Shown piece after piece: positions 1 through 64,000 of a stretch of DNA of 64,000 bases. The notes beneath the pieces are model-generated. The model saw only the letters and a program-made list of their open reading frames with translations, did no database searches and was not told the DNA's origin. The first letter of the stretch is position 1, and each line of letters starts with the position of its first letter. The stretch is from IMG/VR virus record IMGVR_UViG_3300031964_000018; one strand, written 5' to 3'. This stretch comes from a virus. Made by a program: the position numbers and the translations under genes.

Positions 1-126
1 CTGCACTCCCTGCACTCCCTGCACTCCCTGCACTCCCTGCACTCCCTGCACTCCCTGCACTCCCTGCACTCCCTGCACTCCCTGCACTCCCTGCACTCCC
101 TGCACTCCCTGCACTCCCTGCACTCC
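1..126. repeat. Perfect tandem array of the 9-bp unit CTGCACTCC, 14 copies, truncated by the window edge
   Basis: Read directly. The unit repeats without mismatch from nt 1 to 126 and is followed by CCTAATAG. It abuts the stop codon (128-130) of minus-strand ORF 128-427. All frames are open across the array. Confidence 0.95.
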
Positions 127-127
127 C

Positions 128-427
128 CTAATAGATCGGACGTATCACTCTGCGCTGGCGCGAGCCAATTTGCGCCGTACCATCCGCATCTAGCACTGGA
201 GTGAATTCTTTGCGATCGGCCATATCGTAATAAGCCTTATCGTCCGCAGCGAATTGAGCGCGCGCATTAGCCTCATACTCTTCCGGAGTCGCTAACCCTT
301 GCGCCTTCCGCTTGCGCGCCATCTCTCTTGAGATCTTTCGCGTGATCTTGCCACCCTTTGCCAGGTAAGAGCCAGTAAGGATACTCAACTCGGCGCGCAT
401 TTCGGCCTTGGTGATGGTGGGCTGCAT
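128..427 (-). CDS. Hypothetical protein (99 aa), first gene downstream of the promoter/terminator module at 454-590
   Basis: Internal ATG ([10 protein letters not shown]...) of track ORF 128-532. The longer form would be translated through the terminator hairpin at 454-486, so the shorter start is preferred. Confidence 0.55.
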
Positions 428-453
428 TGGGTGGACCTGTACTGTGGGACATG

Positions 454-486
454 AAAAAACCCGCCGCGGATTTGTCCGGGGCGGGT
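454..486 (-). terminator. Rho-independent terminator (minus strand) in the leader of ORF 128-427
   Basis: Minus-strand hairpin ACCCGCCCCGGA-CAAA-TCCGCGGCGGGT (11 bp, one mismatch, tetraloop) followed by TTTTTT. Confidence 0.8.
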
Positions 487-546
487 TCGAATTGGGTGAA
501 GAATCGCTGGTGCGTCTTGTTTTCTGACGCACTCCTCATCTCACGG

Positions 547-590
547 ATAATCTCACCTTCCATCCTTCGTGTCAATAGGTAGGTAGGTAA
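547..590 (-). promoter_or_regulatory. Sigma70-like promoter TTGACA-N17-GATTAT (minus strand) preceded by a (TACC)3 repeat
   Basis: The minus strand reads TTACCTACCTACCTA-TTGACA-CGAAGGATGGAAGGTGA-GATTAT. The -35 is at 570-575, the -10 at 547-552 and the TAGG/TACC repeat at 576-590. The same TTGACACGAAGG core recurs at 32675-32686. Confidence 0.6.
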
Positions 591-597
591 CCCTTAC

Positions 598-1161
598 CTA
601 CATGGCCAAACCATACACCTTGGCCAACGTCTCCAGGCACTCCCGGAACCGGCGACCGAAATACAATTCCCAGCTTTCGCCCTTCAGTCCACGCCTGCCT
701 GCCACCTGTGCCATGCTAAAACCGCCTACGAGGACGTCCTGGGCGATCCTGGCTCCCTCCTCACCCATCCTACGGTCTGCCTTCGTTAGCCTACCTACCG
801 CCTTCGCCTGGGCGTCTGTGATGCCTTCTGGCGCCAACCCTCCGGAAACGTATTCCTTTGCCGGGTCGATTGCCTTCGGACCACGCTCTGCCTTCTCCCA
901 ATCCCGCTGATAGGCCCGGCCGCCCTCGTATTGCGCGTCGTCGATGTATTTCCGCGCGTGCTGCTGCGCCAATGGGTCCGACCGAAGGCTGCGGACTACC
1001 CACACCTTGTCGCCGGGATTGACCGGCATCGGGTCGTCTATCTCGAACGTATCCACGATGGCATCCTTGGGCAGCTCGGTTGCCCTGCGATCGTGAGTCG
1101 CTGGTGCCATATCAGTTGCAGGGTTGAACGGTTTTCGAAGTTTCTTGTTTGCCTTAGCCAT
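598..1161 (-). CDS. Hypothetical protein (187 aa) with a C-terminal HTH-like segment; candidate late-gene regulator by position
   Basis: Track ORF. ATGA overlap with the upstream ORF at 1161. The C-terminal segment ARIAQDVLVGGFSMAQVAGRRG looks like a helix-turn-helix. The gene lies immediately upstream of the promoter/terminator module. Function is inference only. Confidence 0.6.
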   Translation of the reverse strand: MAKANKKLRKPFNPATDMAPATHDRRATELPKDAIVDTFEIDDPMPVNPGDKVWVVRSLRSDPLAQQHARKYIDDAQYEGGRAYQRDWEKAERGPKAIDPAKEYVSGGLAPEGITDAQAKAVGRLTKADRRMGEEGARIAQDVLVGGFSMAQVAGRRGLKGESWELYFGRRFRECLETLAKVYGLAM

Positions 1162-1676
1162 TAGGTCGATTCCCCTTCGTATTTCCTGATTATCTCTGCA
1201 CCTGGGAAGAGCTTCTTGATCTCGCCGATTCCCTTGATGGCTTCGACGCTACCGACCATCACCGCCACCTCGTCCGGCGTCATGCAGATGACGTCCTCGC
1301 CGTGCAGCTCCTGAACCCTACCGACTATCCCCTTGTGGTGGCCGATCGCTACCTTGCATCCGGTGACCGGGTCCGAACCTAACTGGTAGGCATCGTCCGG
1401 AACGGGTTGGTTATCCCCGCCGGTATCCATGACCCTGACGGCAGCCGCATATCCGCGGCACAAGCCGGCGCCCTGGGTGGCGATGTCCTCGACGGTCCCC
1501 TTGATGCATGCCCGGTCGAAGATCTCGACCTGTTCGTGGAGCATCCGAGCCAAGGCCGGGTCCACCCTTCTCAACGCCAGATCCGTCCATCGCCGTTCGA
1601 ACGTTAGGGCCGCATCGGCCACAACCGCAGTCCACCTGTTTAACTCTGTGGTTGCATCCTTTTGCGGGCCCCTCAT
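1161..1676 (-). CDS. Hypothetical protein (171 aa)
   Basis: Track ORF in the minus-strand operon. Start and stop overlap both neighbours. Confidence 0.7.
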   Translation of the reverse strand: MRGPQKDATTELNRWTAVVADAALTFERRWTDLALRRVDPALARMLHEQVEIFDRACIKGTVEDIATQGAGLCRGYAAAVRVMDTGGDNQPVPDDAYQLGSDPVTGCKVAIGHHKGIVGRVQELHGEDVICMTPDEVAVMVGSVEAIKGIGEIKKLFPGAEIIRKYEGEST

Positions 1677-1858
1677 GACAGGGTTCCGTGTTCGCCGACG
1701 CAGTGGTGCTGATGCCCCACCTGTGCGCGCGATGACAGTGCGCGCCCTATTACGCTATTACTCTCTCTATAAAGACCACTTTCTCTTACCATTTTACCTT
1801 CTTCTCTCTCTTTAGGGATTCTACGGCTAAATAAGGATTCAAGTGTCATGACAGTCAT
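1673..1858 (-). CDS. Small basic hypothetical protein (61 aa)
   Basis: Track ORF. Its ATG overlaps the primase stop (TGATG) and its stop overlaps the next ATG (ATGA). GC3 is low because it spans a polypurine tract. Confidence 0.4.
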   Translation of the reverse strand: MTVMTLESLFSRRIPKEREEGKMVRESGLYRESNSVIGRALSSRAQVGHQHHCVGEHGTLS

Positions 1859-4674
1859 CAGAAGACAGGAATGCTAAGGTCTTCAACGACTTGACTGACG
1901 ATGACACCTTCCGATGACACTTGTTTTGTAAGTGTCATTTGGGGGGGTAGTGTCATGCGCGGTGCGCGACGGTCCGCAGCGGTGCGCACGGCCTCCGAGA
2001 CCCCCCGCAACTGCCGATGTTGCATGCCTTTGATGACCCCTTTTTGGAGCCATTCCGTCGAGATCTGGGTGTTCACCTGTCCCTTCGGATCGGTTGTATT
2101 TGCCGTCTTGCCCTCGAGGATCCGGCTCTCATAGCCGGCCTTGTGATGGGCCAATCCGGTCTCGTTCAGCACGATCCCGCAGTAGTAGCGGCGCCGTGCA
2201 TCCCGCAGTTCCGTTGAGCTGACAGCGATCATCGGGTCCGCCATAGCGGTCAGACTCTTCCCGATCGAATCGTTGCTAGGCACGCCACGATTCTCGCCTT
2301 TGTTCTGCAGCCACCAATCTGCGAACGCCAAGCTGAAGTCTGGGCTCGAGATCTTTCGATCCATGTCATAGGTGATGCAATCCTCCATGAAGCCGGCGAC
2401 CAGGTTGGAATCCTTCCGGATCTCCTCAGTGGCCTCGATCATCTCGTCTGTCATGGCAATGAATCCCCTTTTCAATGCGCGCGCAGCCCCTTCTAGTGCC
2501 CATGTGAGCAGCCCTGGCATCTCATTCGCCAGAACCAGCGACGACGGCTTGCCTACGCCCAGACGGTCCGCCTCCTTCGCCGTCCCGACTAGCTCGTCGG
2601 GAAAGAATTCCCGCTTGCACAGGATCACGATCAGCCGATTGACAATGGCCTTCGTGGCTTCTTTGAACTGCGGCGGATGATTGGTGCCCCAGAAGATCGG
2701 CGACGTAATACGGACCGACAGCATGGGCCCGTTCTTGACGTTGACGCTGATCGGCTCACCGGTGACGATGGCCTTGACCGCCGAACTAAAGTGCCACTTC
2801 CGTTGGTCGAAGGCTTCATGCAAAACCCATGGCCGCCGCTTCAGGAATCCCATCATGCCGTGCGGGCCTTCGAGTGACTCGATCGGCGTGGCATTCTGTT
2901 CACTGCCAAAGAACCCGCCGAGCACCTCGAGCAGACCGGATTTACCGAAGTTGGAGCCGCCCTGGAAGATCAGAGCCTTGGACAACTCCCGCGGCTTATT
3001 GTCGACCAAGCCGGCGCCGAGCACCTCCTGGATAACGCCAATGATCTGAGCTCGCTCATCCGGATGACGATCCGAGAAGCAATCCTCCAGCATCTGCAGC
3101 CACCATGGGCACTTCGCTTCAGGGTCGTATTTGGTCTCGATCCGCCATGTGACATAGTGCTCCGGAACGATCTCCGTCACTTCCATGGTGCGCGGATCGA
3201 TCAGGCCGTTGCGGGTGGGGATGAGGCCATGGCTATCCCAGTCAACGCTCTCTCTACGCAAATGCTTCTGACGCAGGATCCAGTTGCGCGTTTCATTGAC
3301 CAGCTTCAGGTTGGCTGAAATACCAAACTGATCGGCCGCGGCTTGGACTTCCGTATTTATCCAGGCGCCGATGTCCTCCGCAATCGTCCAGATGCCGTCT
3401 GCGTACATCCAGTTTTGCTTCGGAAGAAACAGTAGTCTCCGACCACTCTCATGAAGGACTCCAAGAATGGCATCGCCGATCCGCTCGAACTGGGTTTTCT
3501 CTCCGTTTGTGTCCTTTGGTTTCTTTGGTTTCGGTTCGCCCTTGGCTGCGGCTTTGGCTTGCTCGACCGTTTCTACCCTACCTGGCGCTGCCGCGGTGGC
3601 CTTCTTCGTCGGCACCTCCGAAGCCTGTTCTTTCGCTCGAGTCTCCGCGATAGGCGTGTACTTCTTGAGCCATGTGTCGCACATGCCTCGGATCGTCTTC
3701 TCTTCCTTCTGCCAGTTCCATCGCTTGCCGTAATCGCCGGCCGCCGCCTTGGTAGCTGCCAAAACCAGGCTGACCGTTTCCTCTATGGTCCGCCCGGCAT
3801 TGAGCATGCTGCCGGTCACAGCCAATTGCGTGGTATGGACTGCAGCGTCGCCGCCCATCATGTAGCCCATGGCATCGAGCCGCTTCTCGACGTCGACCGA
3901 CGGCTTCCATCCGCCGCCGTTCGCGATGGCATAGTCCAGATACGGATTGCTCTCGCCGGACATCTCAGACACGGTCCGGCCGCGCTCGCGTTCCTTGCGC
4001 AAGATCACCGGGGAAGTTTCAGCTAACCATTCCTCGAGATCCTCGAGGTGGTAGAGTTTTAGTTGAGTTTTTCCGGTGATATCGAACAAATCTACTGGGT
4101 GGGAAACTATAACTTCCTTATTCTCACCGCGTTTCGTGTTGTGTGTGCCCGGCAACCTCAACAGCCTTGCAATCTCACAGACCGAATGATCGCCGCCGAC
4201 GAGATCCGCCAATAGCTTGAGATCCGCTTCGATACGGTCCATCTCGCCGAGCGCACCGGCCGGATTGGTGATGACCTCAGTCAGCATCCAGATGCCGTGA
4301 ACGCCGTTGCCACTCCTGACCATGATGGACGGCGGATACTTCAACGTCTTGAGCTTACGTTCTACATCCTCAAGACTATCCTCAATGTCCTTCAGGTCGA
4401 TGTCCGCGAATAGAAACGCGATCTCGTCGACCTGGATCTTGTTGCGTGCCTTTGATCCTGGCTTCAGCGTGCCGGCAGAATAAAACAGGCCGCGGTCGGG
4501 CCCGTCCCATTTCGCAATGAACGCCTCGATGTCCTTTACTTCGCGCGTGTCCAGCTTCCGGAACGGATGGACGCCATCGCGCTCGTTACCAAGACTGCAG
4601 AAGTGGACAGGGGAGGAAGTGCTCGGACCGAATACTGCCTTGATGAAGTCGATTGCTATTTTTGTCATGGGCAT
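1858..4674 (-). CDS. Bifunctional prim-pol primase / SF3 (P4-D5 type) helicase, 938 aa
   Basis: The N-terminal region has prim-pol-like motifs (FADIDLKD, RSGNGVHGIW). The C-terminal half has a Walker A motif GGSNFGKSG in a D5/P4 primase-helicase-like context. Confidence 0.85.
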   Translation of the reverse strand: MPMTKIAIDFIKAVFGPSTSSPVHFCSLGNERDGVHPFRKLDTREVKDIEAFIAKWDGPDRGLFYSAGTLKPGSKARNKIQVDEIAFLFADIDLKDIEDSLEDVERKLKTLKYPPSIMVRSGNGVHGIWMLTEVITNPAGALGEMDRIEADLKLLADLVGGDHSVCEIARLLRLPGTHNTKRGENKEVIVSHPVDLFDITGKTQLKLYHLEDLEEWLAETSPVILRKERERGRTVSEMSGESNPYLDYAIANGGGWKPSVDVEKRLDAMGYMMGGDAAVHTTQLAVTGSMLNAGRTIEETVSLVLAATKAAAGDYGKRWNWQKEEKTIRGMCDTWLKKYTPIAETRAKEQASEVPTKKATAAAPGRVETVEQAKAAAKGEPKPKKPKDTNGEKTQFERIGDAILGVLHESGRRLLFLPKQNWMYADGIWTIAEDIGAWINTEVQAAADQFGISANLKLVNETRNWILRQKHLRRESVDWDSHGLIPTRNGLIDPRTMEVTEIVPEHYVTWRIETKYDPEAKCPWWLQMLEDCFSDRHPDERAQIIGVIQEVLGAGLVDNKPRELSKALIFQGGSNFGKSGLLEVLGGFFGSEQNATPIESLEGPHGMMGFLKRRPWVLHEAFDQRKWHFSSAVKAIVTGEPISVNVKNGPMLSVRITSPIFWGTNHPPQFKEATKAIVNRLIVILCKREFFPDELVGTAKEADRLGVGKPSSLVLANEMPGLLTWALEGAARALKRGFIAMTDEMIEATEEIRKDSNLVAGFMEDCITYDMDRKISSPDFSLAFADWWLQNKGENRGVPSNDSIGKSLTAMADPMIAVSSTELRDARRRYYCGIVLNETGLAHHKAGYESRILEGKTANTTDPKGQVNTQISTEWLQKGVIKGMQHRQLRGVSEAVRTAADRRAPRMTLPPQMTLTKQVSSEGVIVSQVVEDLSIPVF

Positions 4675-4700
4675 CCGGGTGTGATGGGTGTATTCAGAAA

Positions 4701-4782
4701 GGGCCCGCCCAGGGCGTGATGGCCCCAGGCGGGTAGTTTGGTTTCAACAGTTAGCTCCTGCAAAGATCTCGACTGTTGAAAC
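4701..4782 (-). promoter_or_regulatory. Two strong hairpins between ORF 4803-5537 and the primase gene (possible attenuator or terminator)
   Basis: A perfect 11-bp inverted repeat GTTTCAACAGT/ACTGTTGAAAC lies at 4741-4751 and 4772-4782. On the minus strand a second hairpin CCCGCCTGGGGC-CATCAC-GCCCTGGGCGGG is followed by CCCTTTCT (about 4701-4735). Confidence 0.4.
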
Positions 4783-4802
4783 TGGAGGGTAGAGGACTGT
4801 TC

Positions 4803-5537
4803 TTAGAAGCGCGGTCGCTCGGTGGTGGAGGAAGCTTCGGCTCCTCCACCATTCTTCGCATCGGCCATGCCTTGGATCTGGCGGGCCGCTTCCTTGGTGG
4901 TGTCCGCGGACTCGCTGGGCTCGACACCATCGAACTCGGCTTGATCCACCCAGCCAATGATCTTGAACTCAGGCACCTTGATCTTGCCGTAGGCCGGATC
5001 CTTGTGCTTGTAGCTGTCGACCGCCAGCGTGATGATCGGAAGCTTGCCGGGATTCATCCGACGCTTCTGGCCGAACGAAGTGACAAGCTTGGTGATCGCA
5101 CCGCGACCGCCGGCCGAGTTGGTGACGAACGTGTAGAGTTCGTCATCCGTGGTGTCCTTCAGCACGAGGTATTGAGTCTCCTGCCAGACGTCCATCGGCT
5201 TGCCGTCCTTGTCGGTCGGCCATTCGGACTTGTCGTCGAAACCCAGCGTGTCGCGCTTCTGCGGACGATGGCCCTCAACAATGAGTCCCATGATGGTCTC
5301 GGCCGGCTTCTGATCTTCCCAGCGGATCCAGCCGACCAAGATGTTCGGCATGCTGGCAATGTATTTGCCGCCCGCCTCGATCTCATTGTCGCCGACCGAG
5401 TAGTCGCCCTTAGAGAACTTGAGCATCTTGCCAACGATGTTGGAAGAGTTCTCGCGCCCATAGGCCGAATACGGATCGTAGTTGTCGTCCTGAGTAGCCA
5501 CAGCTCCGCCGTGACCTGAAGTGGTCATATCGTTCAT
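4803..5537 (-). CDS. Hypothetical protein (244 aa); possible ssDNA-binding or recombination partner of the adjacent exonuclease (synteny only)
   Basis: Track ORF with an acidic C-terminal tail. It sits between the primase and the MazG / Cas4-like nuclease genes. No motif was recognised. Confidence 0.6.
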   Translation of the reverse strand: MNDMTTSGHGGAVATQDDNYDPYSAYGRENSSNIVGKMLKFSKGDYSVGDNEIEAGGKYIASMPNILVGWIRWEDQKPAETIMGLIVEGHRPQKRDTLGFDDKSEWPTDKDGKPMDVWQETQYLVLKDTTDDELYTFVTNSAGGRGAITKLVTSFGQKRRMNPGKLPIITLAVDSYKHKDPAYGKIKVPEFKIIGWVDQAEFDGVEPSESADTTKEAARQIQGMADAKNGGGAEASSTTERPRF

Positions 5538-6027: not shown

Positions 6028-7093
6028 TCGCACCTCCTTTTGCTGTGGATACGGTGAAGCGATCAGTCTGATCTCCCACTTCGACAAATTGTTCGATATC
6101 GATTCCAGCCGCCTTGGCCGCGGCTTGGATTGCTTTGTTGTTGTATGTTTTTTTGCCCTTGACGCTCGACCACGACACCACGCCAGGAACTTTCCGGATG
6201 TTCTTTTCCCTCAATCGATCCTTGAGGGCCTGCTTGAGCGTGCGGAGTTTGGTTTCGTCCTTACCTACGGTCGCCTCTAACGCCGCGATCTCTCGCGCCA
6301 TATCGGCAAACTCTGCAGCTAACTGGGGATCGACGTCCTTCTCAGGGTGCGTCGGGACAGAAATCCGAACCACGCCGCACGCCCCGGTGAAGGGGCAATA
6401 CTCACAATCCTTGCCGCCAGAGAGATAGCCCTCGGGCTCCAGATCCTTGGCACTTGTTGCCGTCATGACCTGGGTGGCGCGAATTTTCGCAACCGCGTAA
6501 ATCGCAGGATCGAACTTGATGGGGAATTCGGTAATCTGATCCCAGAAGCTTGCGTCCGTGTAGGACAGCAGCGAGTAACCTGGTTTGTAAGGAGTCAGCT
6601 CGCGGACTATGCCCATCTGAACGTGAGTCTGAAAGATGTTTATTGGCTTTGCTTCAATTAAATTTGCCCTGGGGTCGATCGTCTTGGATTCTGCCATGAT
6701 GCAGTCGCCCTCGATGTCGGCAACTCCATTGTCCTTGAGGAAGTCCCGCGGCAAATCAATCAGCATGCCGTCCGGTGTTGCACTCAGGAAACCGGTCACA
6801 AACGACTGCTGATCTGGGCCAGACAGCAGCAGCTTGTCGCCGTACTTGGCCTTCATCGCTGGTGCCCAGAAGTGATTCTCCATCAGGGTGCCGCGCAGTT
6901 TGGCGCCCCAACCGTCCACGTAGTCGGAATCACGTACGACACCGAAACGAGGGTCGTTCTCGTTCTTGGTGTAATAGGTCTTCCGTATACAGCCGCCGAC
7001 CTCGGACGCCCCGACGGTCTGGGTGCGATCATGGGCCCACTCGCGATCGAGAGTAGCGGCGTAGGCGTTCATGGCATCCTTGACGACGCTCAT
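6017..7093 (-). CDS. PD-(D/E)XK exonuclease of the Cas4/AddB type with an Fe-S cysteine cluster (358 aa)
   Basis: One N-terminal Cys (GGCIRKTYY) plus C-terminal CEYCPFTGAC (C-x2-C-x5-C), with acidic/Lys nuclease motifs in between (MAESKTID). Confidence 0.75.
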   Translation of the reverse strand: MSVVKDAMNAYAATLDREWAHDRTQTVGASEVGGCIRKTYYTKNENDPRFGVVRDSDYVDGWGAKLRGTLMENHFWAPAMKAKYGDKLLLSGPDQQSFVTGFLSATPDGMLIDLPRDFLKDNGVADIEGDCIMAESKTIDPRANLIEAKPINIFQTHVQMGIVRELTPYKPGYSLLSYTDASFWDQITEFPIKFDPAIYAVAKIRATQVMTATSAKDLEPEGYLSGGKDCEYCPFTGACGVVRISVPTHPEKDVDPQLAAEFADMAREIAALEATVGKDETKLRTLKQALKDRLREKNIRKVPGVVSWSSVKGKKTYNNKAIQAAAKAAGIDIEQFVEVGDQTDRFTVSTAKGGANAD

Positions 7094-10955: not shown

Positions 10956-11323
10956 AGGTAAATGAACTCGCGCTTCAGAAACTTCGCCAAGGCGAACTCC
11001 GGACCGCTGGCGCCGCTGCTGAACTCCCAACCAGGAAGAAAAGCGATCGTGGTGCAGCGACCATTCTCGTCGCCAAGCGCGATGAACTTGAGATCCTGAT
11101 AGATGGCCACTGCGAGATCGAACTGATGTTCGGCCACGGCCATGTCCACGTTACCGGTCGGGTTGTTCAGTGAGATATCCTTGCCGTGTCGACGAATGTC
11201 ATTCTCCGCCGGGCAGAACACGGCATGCCCTTCGGAGCGAAAACTCTCGCGCGCCTTGTGGAACGCCGGGAAGTTGAAGTAAGGAACCCCCCGCATCGGT
11301 CCTGCCAGATAGATATTCTTCAT
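10952..11323 (-). CDS. DUF4406 / nucleoside 2-deoxyribosyltransferase-like protein (123 aa)
   Basis: The N-terminus MKNIYLAGPMRGVPYFNFPAFHKA is characteristic of the DUF4406 fold family. Confidence 0.65.
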   Translation of the reverse strand: MKNIYLAGPMRGVPYFNFPAFHKARESFRSEGHAVFCPAENDIRRHGKDISLNNPTGNVDMAVAEHQFDLAVAIYQDLKFIALGDENGRCTTIAFLPGWEFSSGASGPEFALAKFLKREFIYL

Positions 11324-12253: not shown

Positions 12254-12850
12254 TCAGACAGAGACACCATCAACGATGGCCATAGCTTCTCGGGAGGCCG
12301 AGTGGTTACGGTCTCCACTCCCCCAAGCTATAGGCCCGACAGGGGGCTTGCCGATTCTACGATGCGTCAAGGCGTGATGCCCTGGGCAGTAGCTGCTGTC
12401 TTCTTGCTTCGGATTGTCGCAATAGACCATGTAAGACGTGTCTTCGCCGACCGGATAGGCGCAGCCGTGGAAGAAGTTCATCTTGTGGAATGGCGTGCTG
12501 CGAACTCGGACTGCAGCTTTCCGAGGTGTGAATGGCGCACTCGGAATCTCGCCATGTTGCTTTGGGGTGATTCCGGCCGCGGCTCGGACTCGTCTTTTGG
12601 AGTCTCTCTTGGCAATCCGCTTGGCCTCTTCCCTCTGTGCCAGGATCTCCGGCGTAATCTCAGGTCTAAATCCACGCGGGTTCTTGGCCAGGCCTGCTCG
12701 CTTGATTAATCCTCCGATGGCGCTCCGGGTGGCGCCGACAGCGTTGCCGGCCTCCTCATACGTGGCGCCAGCGGCTACCAGGCGAATAGCCTCGGCCCGA
12801 GTTTCTTCCGTCCACGGCGATGTGGTTGCATTACGATGTGTGGCTGACAT
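12254..12850 (-). CDS. gcrA: GcrA-like cell-cycle regulator homologue (198 aa)
   Basis: N-terminal W-T-E...A-G-x-T/S...R-S-A-I-G-G-L-I-K-R-A-G-L HTH, and a C-terminal C-x-Y-P-V-G...Y-C...Y-C-P-G-H-H segment. Both parallel Caulobacter GcrA. Confidence 0.75.
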   Translation of the reverse strand: MSATHRNATTSPWTEETRAEAIRLVAAGATYEEAGNAVGATRSAIGGLIKRAGLAKNPRGFRPEITPEILAQREEAKRIAKRDSKRRVRAAAGITPKQHGEIPSAPFTPRKAAVRVRSTPFHKMNFFHGCAYPVGEDTSYMVYCDNPKQEDSSYCPGHHALTHRRIGKPPVGPIAWGSGDRNHSASREAMAIVDGVSV

Positions 12851-12851
12851 G

Positions 12852-13082
12852 TTAGGCGACCACACTTAATGCGCGAGGATTATTGTCTGCAGTCGGGATC
12901 GTATCATCCGATCGAAGACTCGCGAGGAGCAAATCCACCTCTAGCTTGAGCTGTCGGATGGAGGCGATCTGAGAGTGGCCAGACTTGTCCAATCGAATCT
13001 TGGCGATCATGGTCCGCGCGCCGGCAATCTCTTTTCCGATCCGCACAGTGTAGTTGCCGCAAGTGTTGCAGTTAGTGATCAT
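12852..13082 (-). CDS. Hypothetical protein (76 aa)
   Basis: Track ORF. An N-terminal CNTC pair is present. Confidence 0.55.
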   Translation of the reverse strand: MITNCNTCGNYTVRIGKEIAGARTMIAKIRLDKSGHSQIASIRQLKLEVDLLLASLRSDDTIPTADNNPRALSVVA

Positions 13083-13785: not shown

Positions 13786-13885
13786 GCCTACCTACCTACT
13801 GATTCGGCGTGTGGGCAAATAGGTAGGCGAATCGGTAGGCAGTGTCAAACCCTATTTGACTACCACCTACCTGCCTGCTATAAAT
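13786..13885. promoter_or_regulatory. Left immunity control region: TAGGTAGG-type half-sites, a GANTC-containing core and the repressor promoter TTGACT-N17-TATAAA
   Basis: Elements read in order: GCCTACCTACCTAC-TGATTCGGC-N8-AAATAGGTAGGC at 13786-13828, further GGTAGGC at 13834-13840, and a plus-strand -35 at 13856-13861 and -10 at 13879-13884 whose spacer contains CCTACCTGCC. Confidence 0.6.
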
Positions 13886-13928: not shown

Positions 13929-14798
13929 ATGAACGGCGACAAGATTTTTGATCGTTGTGATGAGCTGGGACTGTCTTGGAAGGCATTATCCCTGGCCCTC
14001 AAAGACGAGAACGGTGTCCCGAGGTCTCACAACTACATACAGAAGTTCTTCAGGGAGGGCGTCGGTGGCCATGAGGGGTTCGACGAACGTGACAGCAAGA
14101 CGCTGTCCCACATCCTTGGCCTACCTCTGTCGGTAGTGTCCGGTCCGGATACTAATCCACCGAATCGCAACAAGCTGCGTGACAGAGCCAAATTCAACAA
14201 AGGGCGAGAGCTTCACACATTCGATTCTTCGACGGGGACGTTTAAGCCTGTCAATCCAGTCAAGAAGTTGACTCAAATTAAATCGAAAACCAGCAAATCA
14301 TTAACCCAAAAAAATTTAGTCCTCATTCAAAACAAACCTTCGTCTGATCCTCGACATAATTCACTTGACGATGTCTACCTACCGGCCCAGATCTACGGCG
14401 CGGCTGATTTGCCGGTCTACGGGACCGAGCAGGACCGCAGTGGAGGCGCTCTGATCGTGAATAAGGCTGCAGTTAAAGCGGAACAAAGACCACCGCACTT
14501 AATGAATTCTCGCAATGGGTACGGAATAATTGTTAGGGGGAACGATTCTGCTCCGAGAATAGAAAACGGGGAGACGGTCTACTTCAATCCTGATAAAGCT
14601 CCAGCAGACGGAGATACTTGTATCTTCCACAGTGGGGTTGACTGCGACTCGCTCGCCGTTATACGCAAGCTTCAGCGTTTCAGCGAAGAGACGTGGTTTG
14701 TCAGCCGGTTCTTACCAGACAGCGAAGTCATTGAACTAAAGCGAGAGGAATGGCCCGTGTGCCACGTTTGGGCCGGGTCTGAGCCGGCTAGATACTAA
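13929..14798 (+). CDS. Phage repressor of the LexA/CI S24-peptidase type (289 aa)
   Basis: An N-terminal HTH-like domain is joined by a low-complexity linker to a C-terminal S24-like domain (VRGNDSAPRIENGETVYF...GDTCIF...AVIRKL) with Ser and Lys in the expected contexts. Confidence 0.75.
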   Translation: MNGDKIFDRCDELGLSWKALSLALKDENGVPRSHNYIQKFFREGVGGHEGFDERDSKTLSHILGLPLSVVSGPDTNPPNRNKLRDRAKFNKGRELHTFDSSTGTFKPVNPVKKLTQIKSKTSKSLTQKNLVLIQNKPSSDPRHNSLDDVYLPAQIYGAADLPVYGTEQDRSGGALIVNKAAVKAEQRPPHLMNSRNGYGIIVRGNDSAPRIENGETVYFNPDKAPADGDTCIFHSGVDCDSLAVIRKLQRFSEETWFVSRFLPDSEVIELKREEWPVCHVWAGSEPARY

Positions 14799-15027: not shown

Positions 15028-15077
15028 GCCTGCCTACCTATTTGGTGTTGCCGAATCAAAAGTAGGTAGGTAGGTAT
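15028..15077. promoter_or_regulatory. Right immunity control region, an inverted copy of the 13786-13830 element
   Basis: GCCTGCCTACCTATTTGG-TGTT-GCCGAATCA-AAAGTAGGTAGGTAGGTA. Its reverse complement aligns with CCTACCTACCTAC-TGATTCGGC-...-AAATAGGTAGGC on the left side. Confidence 0.6.
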
Positions 15078-26912: not shown

Positions 26913-27952
26913 TGGCCCAGATCAAGTTGAAATACATCAACGAGTATCGCGACCGGCACGGAAATCTCCATCGCTACTTCCGGCGCAAGGGCGGCAAAAA
27001 CCTGCCACTGTCTGGGAAGCCCGGCTCCACTGAGTTCATGGAGCAGTACAATGCATATCTATCCGATCAGCCGGCTCCGATAAAGCAACAGGTCAACGGA
27101 TCGTTCGCCAAACTGGTGGACGATTTCTATGCCTCGCCCTGGTTCACCAAGAACATCAAGGCGTCGTCCCAGCGCACCTACCGAACGGTTCTCAACAAGT
27201 TGTCCTCGGACCACGGACACCGCGGTGTCGACATGATGACGCCGGAAGCCGTCCAGAGAATCATCGAGAAAATAGCCGGAGAGCATCCAGCTATGGCGAA
27301 CCTGACGAAGGCGGTGCTGCGTCGGCTGATGACGTTCGCCGTCAAGCATCGGGTGGTCGCTTCAAACCCGGCGTCGAGGATGGAATCGTTTGAGATGGGG
27401 GAGCATCATTGCTGGACCGAGAAGGAGCTTGCCCAGTTCGAGCAGAAATGGCCGCTGGGGACACGTCAGCGCCTAGCCTACGAAGCCCTGCTCTGCACCG
27501 TCCAACGCATCGGTGACGTCGCCGCCATGAGCAGGACCGACATTACAGACGGTACGATCCGCGTCGTCCAGGAGAAGACCGGGACCGAGCTCCATATCCC
27601 GATCCTGCCGCAGCTCGAGGCCGCCATGAAGGCGTACCCGGCCAGGGGTCTGGCCATCGTCGGCGCCGAGCGTACCGGATCCCCGATGACGGTCGGATCC
27701 CTGTCTCTGGTCATGAGCGAGGCGATCGAGGCGGCCGGCCTACCAGACCGCTGTGTGTCCCATGGGTTGAGGAAAGCTTCGATGCGGCGGATGGCCGAGT
27801 TGGGATTTTCAACGCACCAGATCGCGTCCTGGTCGGGCCACAAGACCCTGCGCGAGATCGAGCACTATACCAAGGCCGCCGAGCAGAAGAAGATGGCCTT
27901 GGGCGGGGTGGCCGGTAGGTCGAAAAAGAGAACAGAAGTTCCTAACCTTTGA
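26912..27952 (+). CDS. int: Tyrosine recombinase / phage integrase (346 aa)
   Basis: The C-terminal catalytic region reads HGLRKASMRRMAELGFS...WSGHKTLREIEHYT (the R..H-x-x-R..Y pattern). Confidence 0.9.
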   Translation: MAQIKLKYINEYRDRHGNLHRYFRRKGGKNLPLSGKPGSTEFMEQYNAYLSDQPAPIKQQVNGSFAKLVDDFYASPWFTKNIKASSQRTYRTVLNKLSSDHGHRGVDMMTPEAVQRIIEKIAGEHPAMANLTKAVLRRLMTFAVKHRVVASNPASRMESFEMGEHHCWTEKELAQFEQKWPLGTRQRLAYEALLCTVQRIGDVAAMSRTDITDGTIRVVQEKTGTELHIPILPQLEAAMKAYPARGLAIVGAERTGSPMTVGSLSLVMSEAIEAAGLPDRCVSHGLRKASMRRMAELGFSTHQIASWSGHKTLREIEHYTKAAEQKKMALGGVAGRSKKRTEVPNL

Positions 27953-28128
27953 AAGGTTAGGAACTTTCGTCTCTAAAATCACAGCAAAATCAATTACTTA
28001 AAATCTCGTTAGTTAATTTAACGTTACCTTATAACGTTGATATCATTGATCTTTTTGTTCCTAACCTGACCCAAAAGACCCAAAACGCCCACTGAAATCA
28101 CTTGGCTATTTCGAATAGTTCCTAACCT
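27937..28128. other. attP-like region: AT-rich DNA with four copies of GTTCCTAACCT (candidate integrase arm-type sites)
   Basis: A perfect 14-bp inverted repeat AGTTCCTAACCTTT-G-AAAGGTTAGGAACT lies at 27937-27965 and spans the int stop codon. Further direct copies lie at about 28057-28067 and 28118-28128. The surrounding 200 bp is markedly AT-rich. Confidence 0.5.
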
Positions 28129-32120: not shown

Positions 32121-32206
32121 GGCGTCAACACGGCCCCAAGGAAGATGATGATCGGGCCGATGATGATGAAGCCGATGACGAAGCCGGCGATGAGGTACTT
32201 CATCAT
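32117..32206 (-). CDS. Micro-ORF encoding a 29-aa hydrophobic peptide ([29 protein letters not shown])
   Basis: Read by eye. ATGA overlaps at both ends. Confidence 0.4.
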
Positions 32207-32559
32207 CGGACCTCCACCGGCGCCGTGCCGCCCATTCCGATCGCGTTGGCTGCAGCGCGCGACAGATCGATGCAACGTCCACGATGGAACGGACCGCGGT
32301 CGTTGATGCGGACGACGACGCTCTTGCCGTTGTTCAGGTTGGTGACCGTTAGGTGGGCACCGAATGGATGATGCTTGTGGGCGGCGGTCAGCGCCCTCGG
32401 GTTCATGATCTCGCCGGAGGCTGTGCGCTTGCCGCCATAGCCATCGCCGGTCCCGTACTGGGATGCCTCACATCGCTCGGTAGCGAAGACCGGCTCGGAC
32501 GCGGCAGAGCACGACGCCAAGGCAATAAAGCCCAGCGCCGCAATGAGATTGCGGGACAT
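32203..32559 (-). CDS. RlpA-like (double-psi beta-barrel) lytic transglycosylase lipoprotein (118 aa)
   Basis: Lipobox LASC after [13 protein letters not shown]. The DPBB-like core reads TASGE...[27 protein letters not shown]. The ATG at 32559 is preceded by AGGTGA. Confidence 0.75.
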
Positions 32560-32600
32560 TGGTTCACCTGTTTGTTTATGGAAGGGTTGGAATCTGGACA

Positions 32601-32622
32601 AAGAAAAACCCGCCAGCGGGTT
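32601..32622 (-). terminator. Short intrinsic terminator in the leader of the RlpA-like gene
   Basis: The minus strand reads AACCCGC-TGGC-GGGTT followed by TTTTCTTTG. Confidence 0.55.
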
Positions 32623-32657
32623 CATCCGGTGGCGGGGCGTGGTAATCGACTGTGTCG

Positions 32658-32710
32658 TTAGTAGGGTAGTTGACCCTTCGTGTCAAGTAGGTAGGTAGGT
32701 AGGTAGGTAT
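32658..32710 (-). promoter_or_regulatory. Sigma70-like promoter TTGACA-N17-TACTAA (minus strand) preceded by a (TACC)5 repeat; second copy of the 547-590 module
   Basis: The minus strand reads ATACCTACCTACCTACCTACCTAC-TTGACA-CGAAGGGTCAACTACCC-TACTAA. The core TTGACACGAAGG is identical to site 1. Confidence 0.6.
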
Positions 32711-33040: not shown

Positions 33041-33071
33041 AAAAAATGGCCGCGCCGGTTAAGGCGCGACC
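33041..33071 (-). terminator. Rho-independent terminator (minus strand)
   Basis: The minus strand reads GGTCGCGCC-TTAACC-GGCGCGGCC (9 bp) followed by ATTTTTTT. Confidence 0.75.
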
Positions 33072-33089
33072 AGTTTGAAGTGACGTTTC

Positions 33090-35012: not shown

Positions 35013-35189
35013 GATGTTTCCTTTTGATGTAAGAGCACTGATAACTTGTAAGAACACTGATAAGTTGTAAGTGCTCTGATATGTTTCGGATAAGTCGACG
35101 GGCCGCATCGCCAGGGTCATCCGACCGAAGCCAGCGCCCTACAGGGAGACCTCGTAGGAGGATCTCCCCGGCGAGCGGCACCGTCATTC

Positions 35190-39477: not shown

Positions 39478-40446
39478 TCACCAACCGGTTGTTGCGTCGT
39501 AGGCGATGACCGACGAGATTGTTGTGAGAGCGTTGACCGCTGCGGTCTTGACGCCGAGCGCCAGCGTGGTTGCGTTGATCTGCTCCTGCGCAGCCAAGAG
39601 CACCGCGAACAGGTCAGCCACCGTGAATGCCTGGAAGCTCGTGGCTCCGATCGGACTCAAGGTCACGCCGCTCAAGGCGGTTGGACCTGTGTACGACGCT
39701 GCTACACCAGAGATGCCAGCGATGCCTCCGACGCCGCCCCCGAAACCCGCACCCGCTACTGTGGTGTACGGACTCGTCAGGCCCTCGCCAAGAGCGTCTT
39801 CACCTGCTTGAACGATCGTGTTACCGGCCGCGGCGTTCGCGTTGATTATGCCGGCCAGAGCGTTGACGTCGCCAGCCGCTACGTTCAACTCGTTGTTGAC
39901 ACCAGCTACGACATTGTTGTTGACACCAGCTACGACATTGCCGTTGACCCCACCGACGACGTTGCTGTTGATGGAGCTGACCAAGGCAGCAATGGCAGCC
40001 GCCACGTCGGCGTTCACGGCTGCCAGCGCCGACATCACGTTGTTGTTGTTCTGGACGCTGGCAGGATCGGTCGGATTGACGTTGAAGATAAATGTTCCGA
40101 GAGATGTGGCTACCGATACGGGGGCCTCGCTCTGGATCAGGAAGATGCTCTTGAGCAGGCTAAGTTTGACGGCCTGTGCTTGCGCGAGCGTAAGAGGCAA
40201 CGCCTCCGCGGATGCTCCTGTCATCCACTGATTGATGTAAGTCTGGTATGGCGACGGGTCGGCGAACTCCTCCGGCAAGGGGATACGATCATTAAAGATG
40301 ATCTTTCCGATCCCCGTGCCGCCGTCCCACTCCACGAAATTGACGTTGGATGCGAGCGAGTTTGCTGTAATGGGTTGGGTCAAACCGAACAGACGGACTG
40401 TCGATTTGACCCTATCGAGTTGAAACGCGAGAGGGGTAGTGGTCAT
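39478..40446 (-). CDS. Repeat-containing tail protein (322 aa) inserted between the gpV-like and gpW-like genes
   Basis: Track ORF. It contains NVV(A/G)GVN peptide repeats encoded by 24-bp tandem repeats at 39892-39963. Confidence 0.6.
   Translation of the reverse strand: MTTTPLAFQLDRVKSTVRLFGLTQPITANSLASNVNFVEWDGGTGIGKIIFNDRIPLPEEFADPSPYQTYINQWMTGASAEALPLTLAQAQAVKLSLLKSIFLIQSEAPVSVATSLGTFIFNVNPTDPASVQNNNNVMSALAAVNADVAAAIAALVSSINSNVVGGVNGNVVAGVNNNVVAGVNNELNVAAGDVNALAGIINANAAAGNTIVQAGEDALGEGLTSPYTTVAGAGFGGGVGGIAGISGVAASYTGPTALSGVTLSPIGATSFQAFTVADLFAVLLAAQEQINATTLALGVKTAAVNALTTISSVIAYDATTGW
39892..39963. repeat. 24-bp tandem repeat GTTGTTGACACCAGCTACGACATT (two perfect copies plus one degenerate)
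   Basis: Read directly. It is in frame within ORF 39478-40446. Confidence 0.9.
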
Positions 40447-47721: not shown

Positions 47722-47752
47722 AAAGAAAAAGCCCGCCGTGTTAGGGCGGGCT
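47722..47752 (-). terminator. Intrinsic terminator/attenuator between the sheath and tube genes
   Basis: The minus strand reads AGCCCGCC-CTAACAC-GGCGGGCT followed by TTTTCTTTGG. Confidence 0.7.
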
Positions 47753-47777
47753 CTGAAAGGCTGATTGGGGTGAAGGA

Positions 47778-50083: not shown

Positions 50084-50111
50084 ATAAAAAAACCCGCCTC
50101 GAAGGGCGGGT
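50084..50111 (-). terminator. Intrinsic terminator upstream of the sheath gene
   Basis: The minus strand reads ACCCGCCC-TTCGA-GGCGGGT followed by TTTTTTTATTGG. Confidence 0.75.
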
Positions 50112-50139
50112 CTGGAAAGGGTTGATTAGTGGAACTGGA

Positions 50140-59165: not shown

Positions 59166-59198
59166 ATAAAAAACCCCCGGTGATTTCTCACCGAGGGT
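59166..59198 (-). terminator. Intrinsic terminator after the major capsid gene
   Basis: The minus strand reads CCCTCGGTGA-GAAA-TCACCGGGGG followed by TTTTTTATTA. Confidence 0.8.
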
Positions 59199-63782: not shown

Positions 63783-64000
63783 TCATGCGAAAAAGAATGT
63801 TGAGGCGGAATCGCTGAGCATCAGCTCAGTGAGCGCCCAGACCATCGCGTCCAATCGGTCAGGCGAGTAGCCTGCCGTCGAGCGGTCAAAATCCTGAGTG
63901 AAGGCGCACATCTGATCTTCGAGCTGAGAGAACCCCCCAACGTGATGGACGCGGCCCTGTTCATAGAGTGCGCTGATTGGTTCGGCCCGAATGGCCTTGC
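63783..64000 (-). CDS. Terminase large subunit, C-terminal end (partial; continues beyond the window)
   Basis: Read by eye on the minus strand: KAIRAEPISALYEQGRVHHVGGFSQLEDQMCAFTQDFDRSTAGYSPDRLDAMVWALTELMLSDSASTFFFA*. This is the conserved terminase nuclease-domain C-terminus. It is absent from the ORF track because the start lies outside the window. Confidence 0.8.
   Translation of the reverse strand, partial: KAIRAEPISALYEQGRVHHVGGFSQLEDQMCAFTQDFDRSTAGYSPDRLDAMVWALTELMLSDSASTFFFA

Follow-up and report, generated by a model that had tools for sequence, protein, structure and literature searches.

The 64,000-nt stretch of viral DNA analysed here (IMG/VR record IMGVR_UViG_3300031964_000018, hereafter the window) carries a compact control element on its minus strand, at positions 454–601, directly attached to the end of open reading frame (ORF) 598–1161. 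This ORF is the last gene of a primase/replication operon and encodes a 187-residue protein of the GafZ (DUF6456) family, which we propose to be an antiterminator. Along the minus strand the order is the stop codon of ORF 598–1161, a (TACC)3TA array, a promoter, a leader hairpin, an intrinsic terminator and the ATG (427–425) of ORF 128–427. An initial annotation of the window had described this arrangement, with TTGACA-N17-GATTAT as the promoter, and each of its parts was read at the place given for it on that strand. We refer to the element as module 1; a second copy, module 2, is described below.

The regulator gene sits directly upstream of the module 1 promoter, the distance from stop codon to −35 being given as 37 nt. 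Its stop codon TAG occupies 600–598 and is followed by (TACC)3 (589–578) and TA (577–576), so that the array (576–589) abuts the −35 hexamer TTGACA at 575–570. A 17-nt spacer leads to an extended −10 element, TG-a-GATTAT (547–555; TG at 555–554, GATTAT at 552–547). The −35 hexamer together with the first six spacer nucleotides makes up the 12-mer TTGACACGAAGG (564–575), which recurs unchanged in module 2 and is a candidate core for regulator binding. A perfect 8-bp palindrome, GTAGGTAA-ggg-TTACCTAC (583–601, 100% complementary), takes in the stop codon together with the first TACC unit, which forms its right arm. The predicted start region around position 540 holds a second copy of GTGAGAT (538–544), 12 nt past the copy that overlaps the −10, as a degenerate −10-like element. 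Further on lie the leader hairpin GTGCGTC/GACGCAC (510–532; arms 532–526 and 516–510), extendable to 498–538, and the intrinsic terminator (454–487), a GC-rich hairpin with arms at 487–475 and 470–458 and a T6 run at 459–454. The hairpin and T6 run are as initially annotated; the clean 11-bp stem is not, as the stem consists of 9 pairs and one mismatch, or 13 nt when flanking A-U pairs are counted (13-nt arms, 92% complementary). These coordinates were read directly from the sequence of the minus strand.

In the consensus scan, the module 1 promoter scores 10/12 against the sigma-70 consensus at 17-nt spacing, with the extended −10 in addition, and is the sole match of at least 10/12 in the whole window, where promoter-like sites overall are rarer than in shuffled sequence. 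No ORF lies between this strong promoter and the terminator. RNA running from the predicted start to the T-run would be about 87 nt long; its fold contains two hairpins and has an energy of −36.7 kcal/mol (z = −4.9 against shuffles). A search of the whole window against Rfam 15 gave no match at gathering score, and none at E up to 1 within positions 1–1300. Classical attenuation by alternative pairing of leader and terminator was considered and set aside, as the folds show no complementary segment.

Module 2 lies on the minus strand at 32604–32709, ahead of a lysis gene, and was missed in the initial annotation. It gives a full-length match (32598–32708, E 1.2e-3) to the covariance model R1 introduced below. 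Its parts are (TACC)5 (32709–32690), TAC, TTGACACGAAGG (32686–32675), 11 nt, TACTAA (32663–32658), CGA, the hexamer CACAGT (32654–32649), a short leader and a terminator of the form CCCGCCACCGG...CTGGCGGG-T5 (32636–32604). Common to both modules are the TACC array, the 12-mer TTGACACGAAGG and a similar terminator; what remains of the spacer, like the −10 and the leader, is unrelated between them. That the TTGACACGAAGG/TACC core is kept while the rest has diverged points to selection on the shared core, and we regard (TACC)n-TA-TTGACACGAAGG as a candidate regulator-binding element, with the identity of TTGACACGAAGG in two diverged modules as the basis for its inclusion. Scanning metagenome contigs for exact occurrences of TACCTA(N)TTGACACGAAGG yielded only same-phage copies and chance matches, and was uninformative on variation in TACC copy number. 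The first gene after module 2, a late gene on the same strand (32203–32559), encodes an RlpA-family lytic transglycosylase lipoprotein (TIGR00413 rlpA, 2.8e-31, above its cut-off), in which a lipoprotein-type signal sequence can be read. The surroundings are of lysis type, with small membrane-protein ORFs upstream.

The arrangement is not confined to the window. Our viral comparison set consisted of 80 IMG/VR loci with a GafZ-like gene. A first regular-expression screen for promoter plus terminator recovered 9/80 and was too strict, so a covariance model, R1, was built from 15 clear cases and used instead. R1 finds the promoter–leader–terminator module in 48 of the 80 loci, in every case on the same strand as the GafZ-like gene and downstream of it. 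The module starts within 60 nt of the regulator stop codon in 27 viral loci, and in 29 a gene for a PBSX-type large terminase (TerL) follows 0.3–2.3 kb further on. The order of regulator, promoter, leader, terminator and next gene reported in the initial annotation is therefore conserved in relatives. Module 1 itself is matched by R1 in its terminator half (449–493, E 4e-4). Across 59 distinct sequences the terminator stem covaries, with double changes in 8 of its 9 pairs, and 92% of its cells are paired compared to 39–59% in slid controls. Across the relatives, sequence conservation is strong in the leader and in the terminator loop GGAGAAATCC.

The promoter region of the aligned modules shows two further regularities. 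First, TTGAC is strongly conserved (C in 100%, G and A in 94%). Second, a hexamer NANNNT lies 1–3 nt past the hexamer at 17-nt spacing and keeps its A2 and T6 in 49 of 51 distinct modules, whereas the hexamer at 17-nt spacing keeps them in 20 of 51. At the NANNNT position module 2 has CACAGT and the related phage locus L173 has CATAAT. Circuits of the Q type need a −10-like element that pauses polymerase for loading (bioRxiv 10.1101/2024.11.20.624540); judged by its position, the NANNNT hexamer may be such a pause element or, alternatively, the real −10 of an activator-dependent promoter. The spacers of relatives begin with short palindromes, for example CTGGTCCAG, GGACCGGTCC and CCCCGGGG, which echo the binding palindrome of GafZ in Caulobacter.

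The closest syntenic phages, L172 and L173, repeat the order of stop codon, promoter, leader, strong terminator and small acidic ORF in a sequence that differs from that of the window. The L172 regulator is 59% identical to ORF 598–1161, the promoters of the two loci read TTGACC/17/GATAAT or TTGACA/17/TATAAT, and the leader hairpin of the window has a counterpart in L172 at the same place but with another sequence, GTGGGAA/TTCCCAC. Leader sequence and length differ among the window, L172, L173 and module 2. Bradyrhizobium phage ppBeUSDA76-2, the sole cultured relative found by tblastn, has the same arrangement with two small ORFs ahead of the terminase; a megablast of positions 1–5000 against phage genomes gave no match. 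In the literature searched we found no description of such a compact cassette.

By sequence, the product of ORF 598–1161 is a phage member of the GafZ/DUF6456 family, as the initial annotation had guessed. The protein matches Pfam DUF6456 (PF20057) over residues 66–159 with E 4.5e-4 and 20.8 bits. Of its 197 homologues about half are already annotated PF20057, at 50–60% identity over 88–100% of the length, and DUF6456 is matched by 25/25 aligned relatives (best E 1.3e-7). A profile search with the family collected 1608 clusters at 50% identity. An AlphaFold (AF2) model of the protein has a mean confidence (pLDDT) of 74, and its best Foldseek matches, which are weak (E 0.25 or worse), are to sigma region 4 and KorA helix-turn-helix domains through the C-terminal helices. 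The comparison with profile models called for in the initial annotation came out for DUF6456, below threshold for the protein itself, and not for the Q family: no Pfam, PHROG or PDB sequence match to Q proteins was obtained. PDB sequence searches with ORF 598–1161, ORF 128–427 and ORF 1161–1676 returned nothing meaningful.

Homologues of GafA carry the DUF6456 annotation, and the initial proposal for GafA was a sigma-like or transcription factor (PMC9638019). In Caulobacter, GafZ corresponds to the C-terminal, GafA-like half (PMC9632790). Its function as an antiterminator is experimentally supported: it is recruited by a palindrome between the −35 and −10 elements and lets RNA polymerase pass the terminator after the first gene (PMC11150451). 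GafA and GafZ are reported to be sigma-region-4-like, a fold that Q21 is noted to have too (bioRxiv 10.1101/2024.11.20.624540), and phage-borne GafA homologues were noted earlier in roseophages (PMC6363796). A partner resembling GafY (DnaA domain IV) was not recognised in the Pfam search. ORF 1161–1676, considered for this role, was rejected: it has no notable Pfam or NCBIfam match and a homologue in just one viral locus. The family extends to host chromosomes. The 80 best genome-contig matches are all chromosomal Bradyrhizobium homologues, 51–55% identical and with conserved host neighbours; these genes are of no use for testing the module but are informative about the spread of the family.

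The anatomy of the modules, their conservation and the family relationship of the regulator are directly established. Since the same layout occurs in dozens of related phages just upstream of packaging genes, a lambda-Q-style late switch is the most likely explanation, and we postulate a Q-like antitermination cassette of the GafZ family that has two targets in this genome, a reading to which we give a probability of about 65%. The near-consensus sigma-70 promoter at 575–547 would fire unaided, and polymerase lacking the protein would halt at the terminator at 454–487, leaving the RNA of about 87 nt; the same terminator would also end the early (primase) operon. Once accumulated, the GafZ-like protein would bind the promoter, with (TACC)n-TA-TTGACACGAAGG as its likely site, and join polymerase to confer resistance to terminators. 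Read-through from module 1 would then reach ORF 128–427, and from module 2 the RlpA-type lysis gene and beyond.

What lies beyond module 1 was followed past the start of the window on two near-identical metagenome contigs, L002 and L008, that bridge it. The first gene, ORF 128–427 (minus strand), encodes a 99-residue near-orphan protein, which is called as a gene on metagenome contigs and has one homologue (53% identity); its positional equivalents are likewise small acidic proteins. A SutA RNA-polymerase-binding domain was considered for it and dismissed, the match being weak (E 4e-4) and absent from the sole homologue and from the positional equivalents. Directly after the ORF comes a perfect 9-bp tandem array, (CTGCACTCC)14, at 1–127. 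Its copy number varies among contigs (the L002 copy is at 11035–11165), and 72-kb contigs end within it; it may be an iteron-like site that serves as an origin, in packaging or partition, or as a roadblock to transcription. Unrelated arrays occupy the same map position in L172 (7125–7410, CCTATTCACGAAT... in four copies) and L173 (7540–7800, GACCCGGATTTTTTGAG in about six). On L002 and L008 the array gives way to a block of opposite-strand genes, about 3.6 kb long, made up of DUF2958, DUF7227 and small ORFs. Next comes an intergenic stretch of 0.77 kb that contains a TACC/GGTA inverted repeat, and after it six small genes, tRNA-Met, a gene with a cold-shock domain, both terminase genes (small, then large) and the portal gene. 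The head/tail operon lies about 6.4 kb beyond module 1, and L172 and L173 have the same layout after the module.

This map bears on the suggestion of the initial annotation that module 1 could be the master late promoter, with all head, tail and lysis genes downstream of it on a circular map. The logic of a lambda-Q-like late switch is well supported, and related phages do place the cassette before the terminase; the master late promoter was not supported, as the bridging contigs put the small ORF, the array and the 3.6-kb opposite-strand block in between. Several observations also weigh against the Q-like cassette itself. Module 1 leads to one small ORF and a convergent block and not to late genes, and scans for modules and consensus promoters found neither ahead of the terminase operon. 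It also lacks a clean NANNNT element and has the degenerate GTGAGAT repeat instead, while the −10 of module 2 (TACTAA) is weak. The PF20057 score of the regulator itself, 20.8 bits, is below the gathering cut-off of 26.3. Foldseek gave no significant structural match to Q proteins, the Q21 chain 6p1b_B ranking 49th with E 2.6, and no module is present 3′ of the 80 chromosomal Bradyrhizobium homologues. Lastly, the TACC motif is not private to the modules: inverted repeats CCTACCTAC ... TAGGTAGG (TACC/GGTA) occur at three other control regions.

In the window, TACCTACC occurs 12 times, compared to 0.31 expected. Operator-like TACC/GGTA inverted repeats lie at 13787–13872, between a resolvase gene and an S24-type repressor-like gene, at 15030–15076, and at the head of the convergent block (L008 3905–3960). 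They take the form CCTACCTAC..GATTCGGC..TAGGTAGGC in divergent control regions, one of them adjoins the S24-peptidase repressor-like gene (13929–14798), and together they look like operators of a phage immunity system. The presence of the motif at other control regions means that another protein may bind it, and the −35-adjacent TACC array may be an operator of the phage repressor instead of, or besides, a loading site for the GafZ-like protein. An operator-type half-site, GGTAGGTAGGC, is found on the minus strand at 789–799, inside the coding sequence of ORF 598–1161; it lies about 200 nt upstream of the (TACC)3 array in inverted orientation and is a possible looping partner.

Three other explanations of the cassette were weighed. 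The protein could be a promoter activator, or a sigma-region-4-like factor acting at or beside the −35, with the terminator merely insulating or attenuating; the true −10 of distant relatives would then be the second hexamer, the better conserved of the two (A2 and T6 in 49/51, compared to 20/51 at 17-nt spacing). The resemblance of the C-terminal helices of the model to the −35-binding domain of sigma region 4 fits this proposal, as do the first description of GafA as sigma-like or a transcription factor (PMC9638019), the poor −35 hexamers of some relatives, which are overlaid by a palindrome, and the weak −10 of module 2. We consider it unlikely nonetheless. The promoters of the window and of its two closest relatives come near the consensus, have an extended −10 and should need no activator, and the highly conserved TTGAC stands at the right spacing. 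Moreover, a strong terminator 25–90 nt past an activated promoter would still demand read-through, and GafZ itself shows both effects (PMC11150451).

Alternatively, the modules could be free-standing small RNA genes (about 87 and 50 nt), whose terminated transcripts act on host or phage mRNAs. Their stable folds, better than shuffles, the lack of an ORF between promoter and terminator, and the strong conservation of the leader and the terminator loop across relatives would all suit such a function. The fixed position, always after a GafZ-like gene and before late genes of the same strand, is at odds with it, as are the failure to keep leader sequence or length among the window, L172, L173 and module 2, and the absence of an Rfam match. 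Furthermore, a loop of GAGAAAT type also occurs in the unrelated late-operon terminator at 59173–59198 and hence is not module-specific, and the short PR′ transcript of lambda is a by-product; we hold small RNA genes to be quite improbable. Very improbable in our estimate is that there is no dedicated switch at all, such that the terminator simply closes the early operon, ORF 128–427 is expressed constitutively at a low level from the promoter through a leaky terminator, and the likeness to Q is incidental. The terminator is indeed rightly placed to end the operon running from primase to ORF 598–1161, and module 1 drives one small gene only before the convergent block. This account, however, has to meet a promoter-then-terminator order found in 48 viral loci and in a second copy in this genome, and the joint inheritance of regulator and module, with a −35 overlapping the stop codon; it also leaves the conserved NANNNT hexamer without a role.

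Strong co-oriented intrinsic terminators lie within the structural operon on the minus strand at 59173–59198 (11 pairs plus a T-run, intergenic), 50090–50113 and 47728–47754, and another (33047–33072, minus strand) stands where the tail module ends, upstream of module 2. With strong co-oriented terminators inside the structural operon, some read-through mechanism is needed. Terminator-resistant polymerase from module 1 could pass ORF 128–427 and the array and run antisense across the 3.6-kb block into the cold-shock/terminase/head/tail operon about 6.4 kb away, bypassing the terminators at 59.2, 50.1, 47.7 and 33.1 kb; we put this forward as a tentative and rather doubtful extension. If true, one switch would both shut down the convergent genes, through transcriptional interference, and activate every late gene, and module 2 would be a lysis booster.

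Some features of the surrounding DNA are recorded for completeness. On L008 at 6096–6771, past position 64000 on the circular map, tRNA-Met and the cold-shock-domain gene stand directly before the terminase genes. A conserved block resembling a 5′ untranslated region precedes the cold-shock-domain gene and gives a weak match to the cspA thermoregulator (E 0.025); cold-shock (Csp) proteins can act as antiterminators. Phased A-tracts, AAAAATTCC AAAAAAAATTCC AAAAAATTTC AAAAACA, occur at L008 4590–4660, just upstream of the first rightward small gene past the convergent block, and two ATTGATATC(A/G)TTG palindromes lie near them; the region may be bent DNA or origin-like. At 27936–27966, the junction of plus-strand and minus-strand gene blocks, there is a hairpin with a perfect 14-bp stem, AAGTTCCTAACCTTT/AAAGGTTAGGAACTT, and CCTAACCT motifs are repeated near it (27941, 28060 and 28121). 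Tandem repeats were listed at 16977–17133 (78 bp × 2, near a transposase-like ORF), 39894–39971 (24 bp × 3.2) and 35028–35081 (19 bp × 2.8), in the tail region. The window also holds a GcrA-like gene at 12254–12865.

GafZ and GafA regulators are known from domesticated gene transfer agents (GTAs). Our analysis places GafZ-family genes in true phages of Bradyrhizobium-type hosts, joined to a compact target in which promoter, conserved −10-like hexamer and terminator lie within about 110 nt. The phage cassette is probably the ancestral form of the GTA switch. As a minimal natural substrate it would suit antitermination assays in vitro and cryo-electron microscopy, and it provides dozens of natural variants of the promoter element from which a recognition code could be read. 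It also supplies an annotation rule for late-gene control in many alphaproteobacterial prophage genes now labelled hypothetical.

Among known systems, the cassette is closest in layout to the lambdoid Q/PR′/tR′ circuits (Q-lambda, Q21 and Q82). In both, the regulator gene lies immediately upstream of its target promoter, a constitutive sigma-70 promoter with an adjacent specific DNA element (here a candidate), followed by a −10-like hexamer just past the promoter (here in the relatives and in module 2), an intrinsic terminator shortly downstream that would leave a short terminated RNA, and packaging or lysis genes beyond (here in the relatives and after module 2). The regulator described here has no sequence and no significant structural similarity to the Q proteins, and differs from them in having a pair of proposed target modules within a single genome. 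Module 1 is not directly joined to the structural genes, and a tetranucleotide array upstream of the −35 forms part of the candidate binding element. Another comparison in the Alphaproteobacteria is BrrG of the Bartonella GTA (BaGTA), a Q-like processive antiterminator of phage origin whose circuit combines a promoter with a −10-like element and a terminator further downstream (bioRxiv 10.1101/2024.11.20.624540). In contrast to our case, BrrG was recognised through its structural resemblance to Q21, and it acts on a distant locus, where the leader measures 864 bp. AlpA of Pseudomonas aeruginosa, as summarised in PMC11150451, is a small DNA-binding antiterminator from another protein family; it is loaded at a promoter-embedded element and activates a lysis programme.

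The closest relatives of the regulator itself are GafZ, acting with GafY in the Caulobacter crescentus GTA, and GafA of Rhodobacter capsulatus, with which it shares the DUF6456 family and a putative sigma-like helix-turn-helix at the C-terminus. GafZ is loaded at its promoter element between −35 and −10 and passes the terminator after the first gene (PMC11150451). There the terminator consists of three 150-bp direct repeats, whereas here it is a simple hairpin 60–90 nt from the start; the 9-bp array after ORF 128–427 may be compared with those repeats. The GafZ promoter depends on GafY and IHF, whereas that of module 1 is near-consensus, and no GafY partner is recognisable here by Pfam search. 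The gene described here belongs to a real phage of about 72 kb and not to a domesticated element, and has its target promoter and terminator directly attached. A LexA/cI-like repressor tops the Caulobacter circuit (PMC9632790), and the window likewise has its S24-type repressor-like gene. In the chromosomal Bradyrhizobium loci (L056 4454–6564), the GafZ-like gene directly follows a GcrA-like gene, and both are divergent from a LexA-like S24 repressor gene, an arrangement that resembles the RogA–GafYZ circuit.

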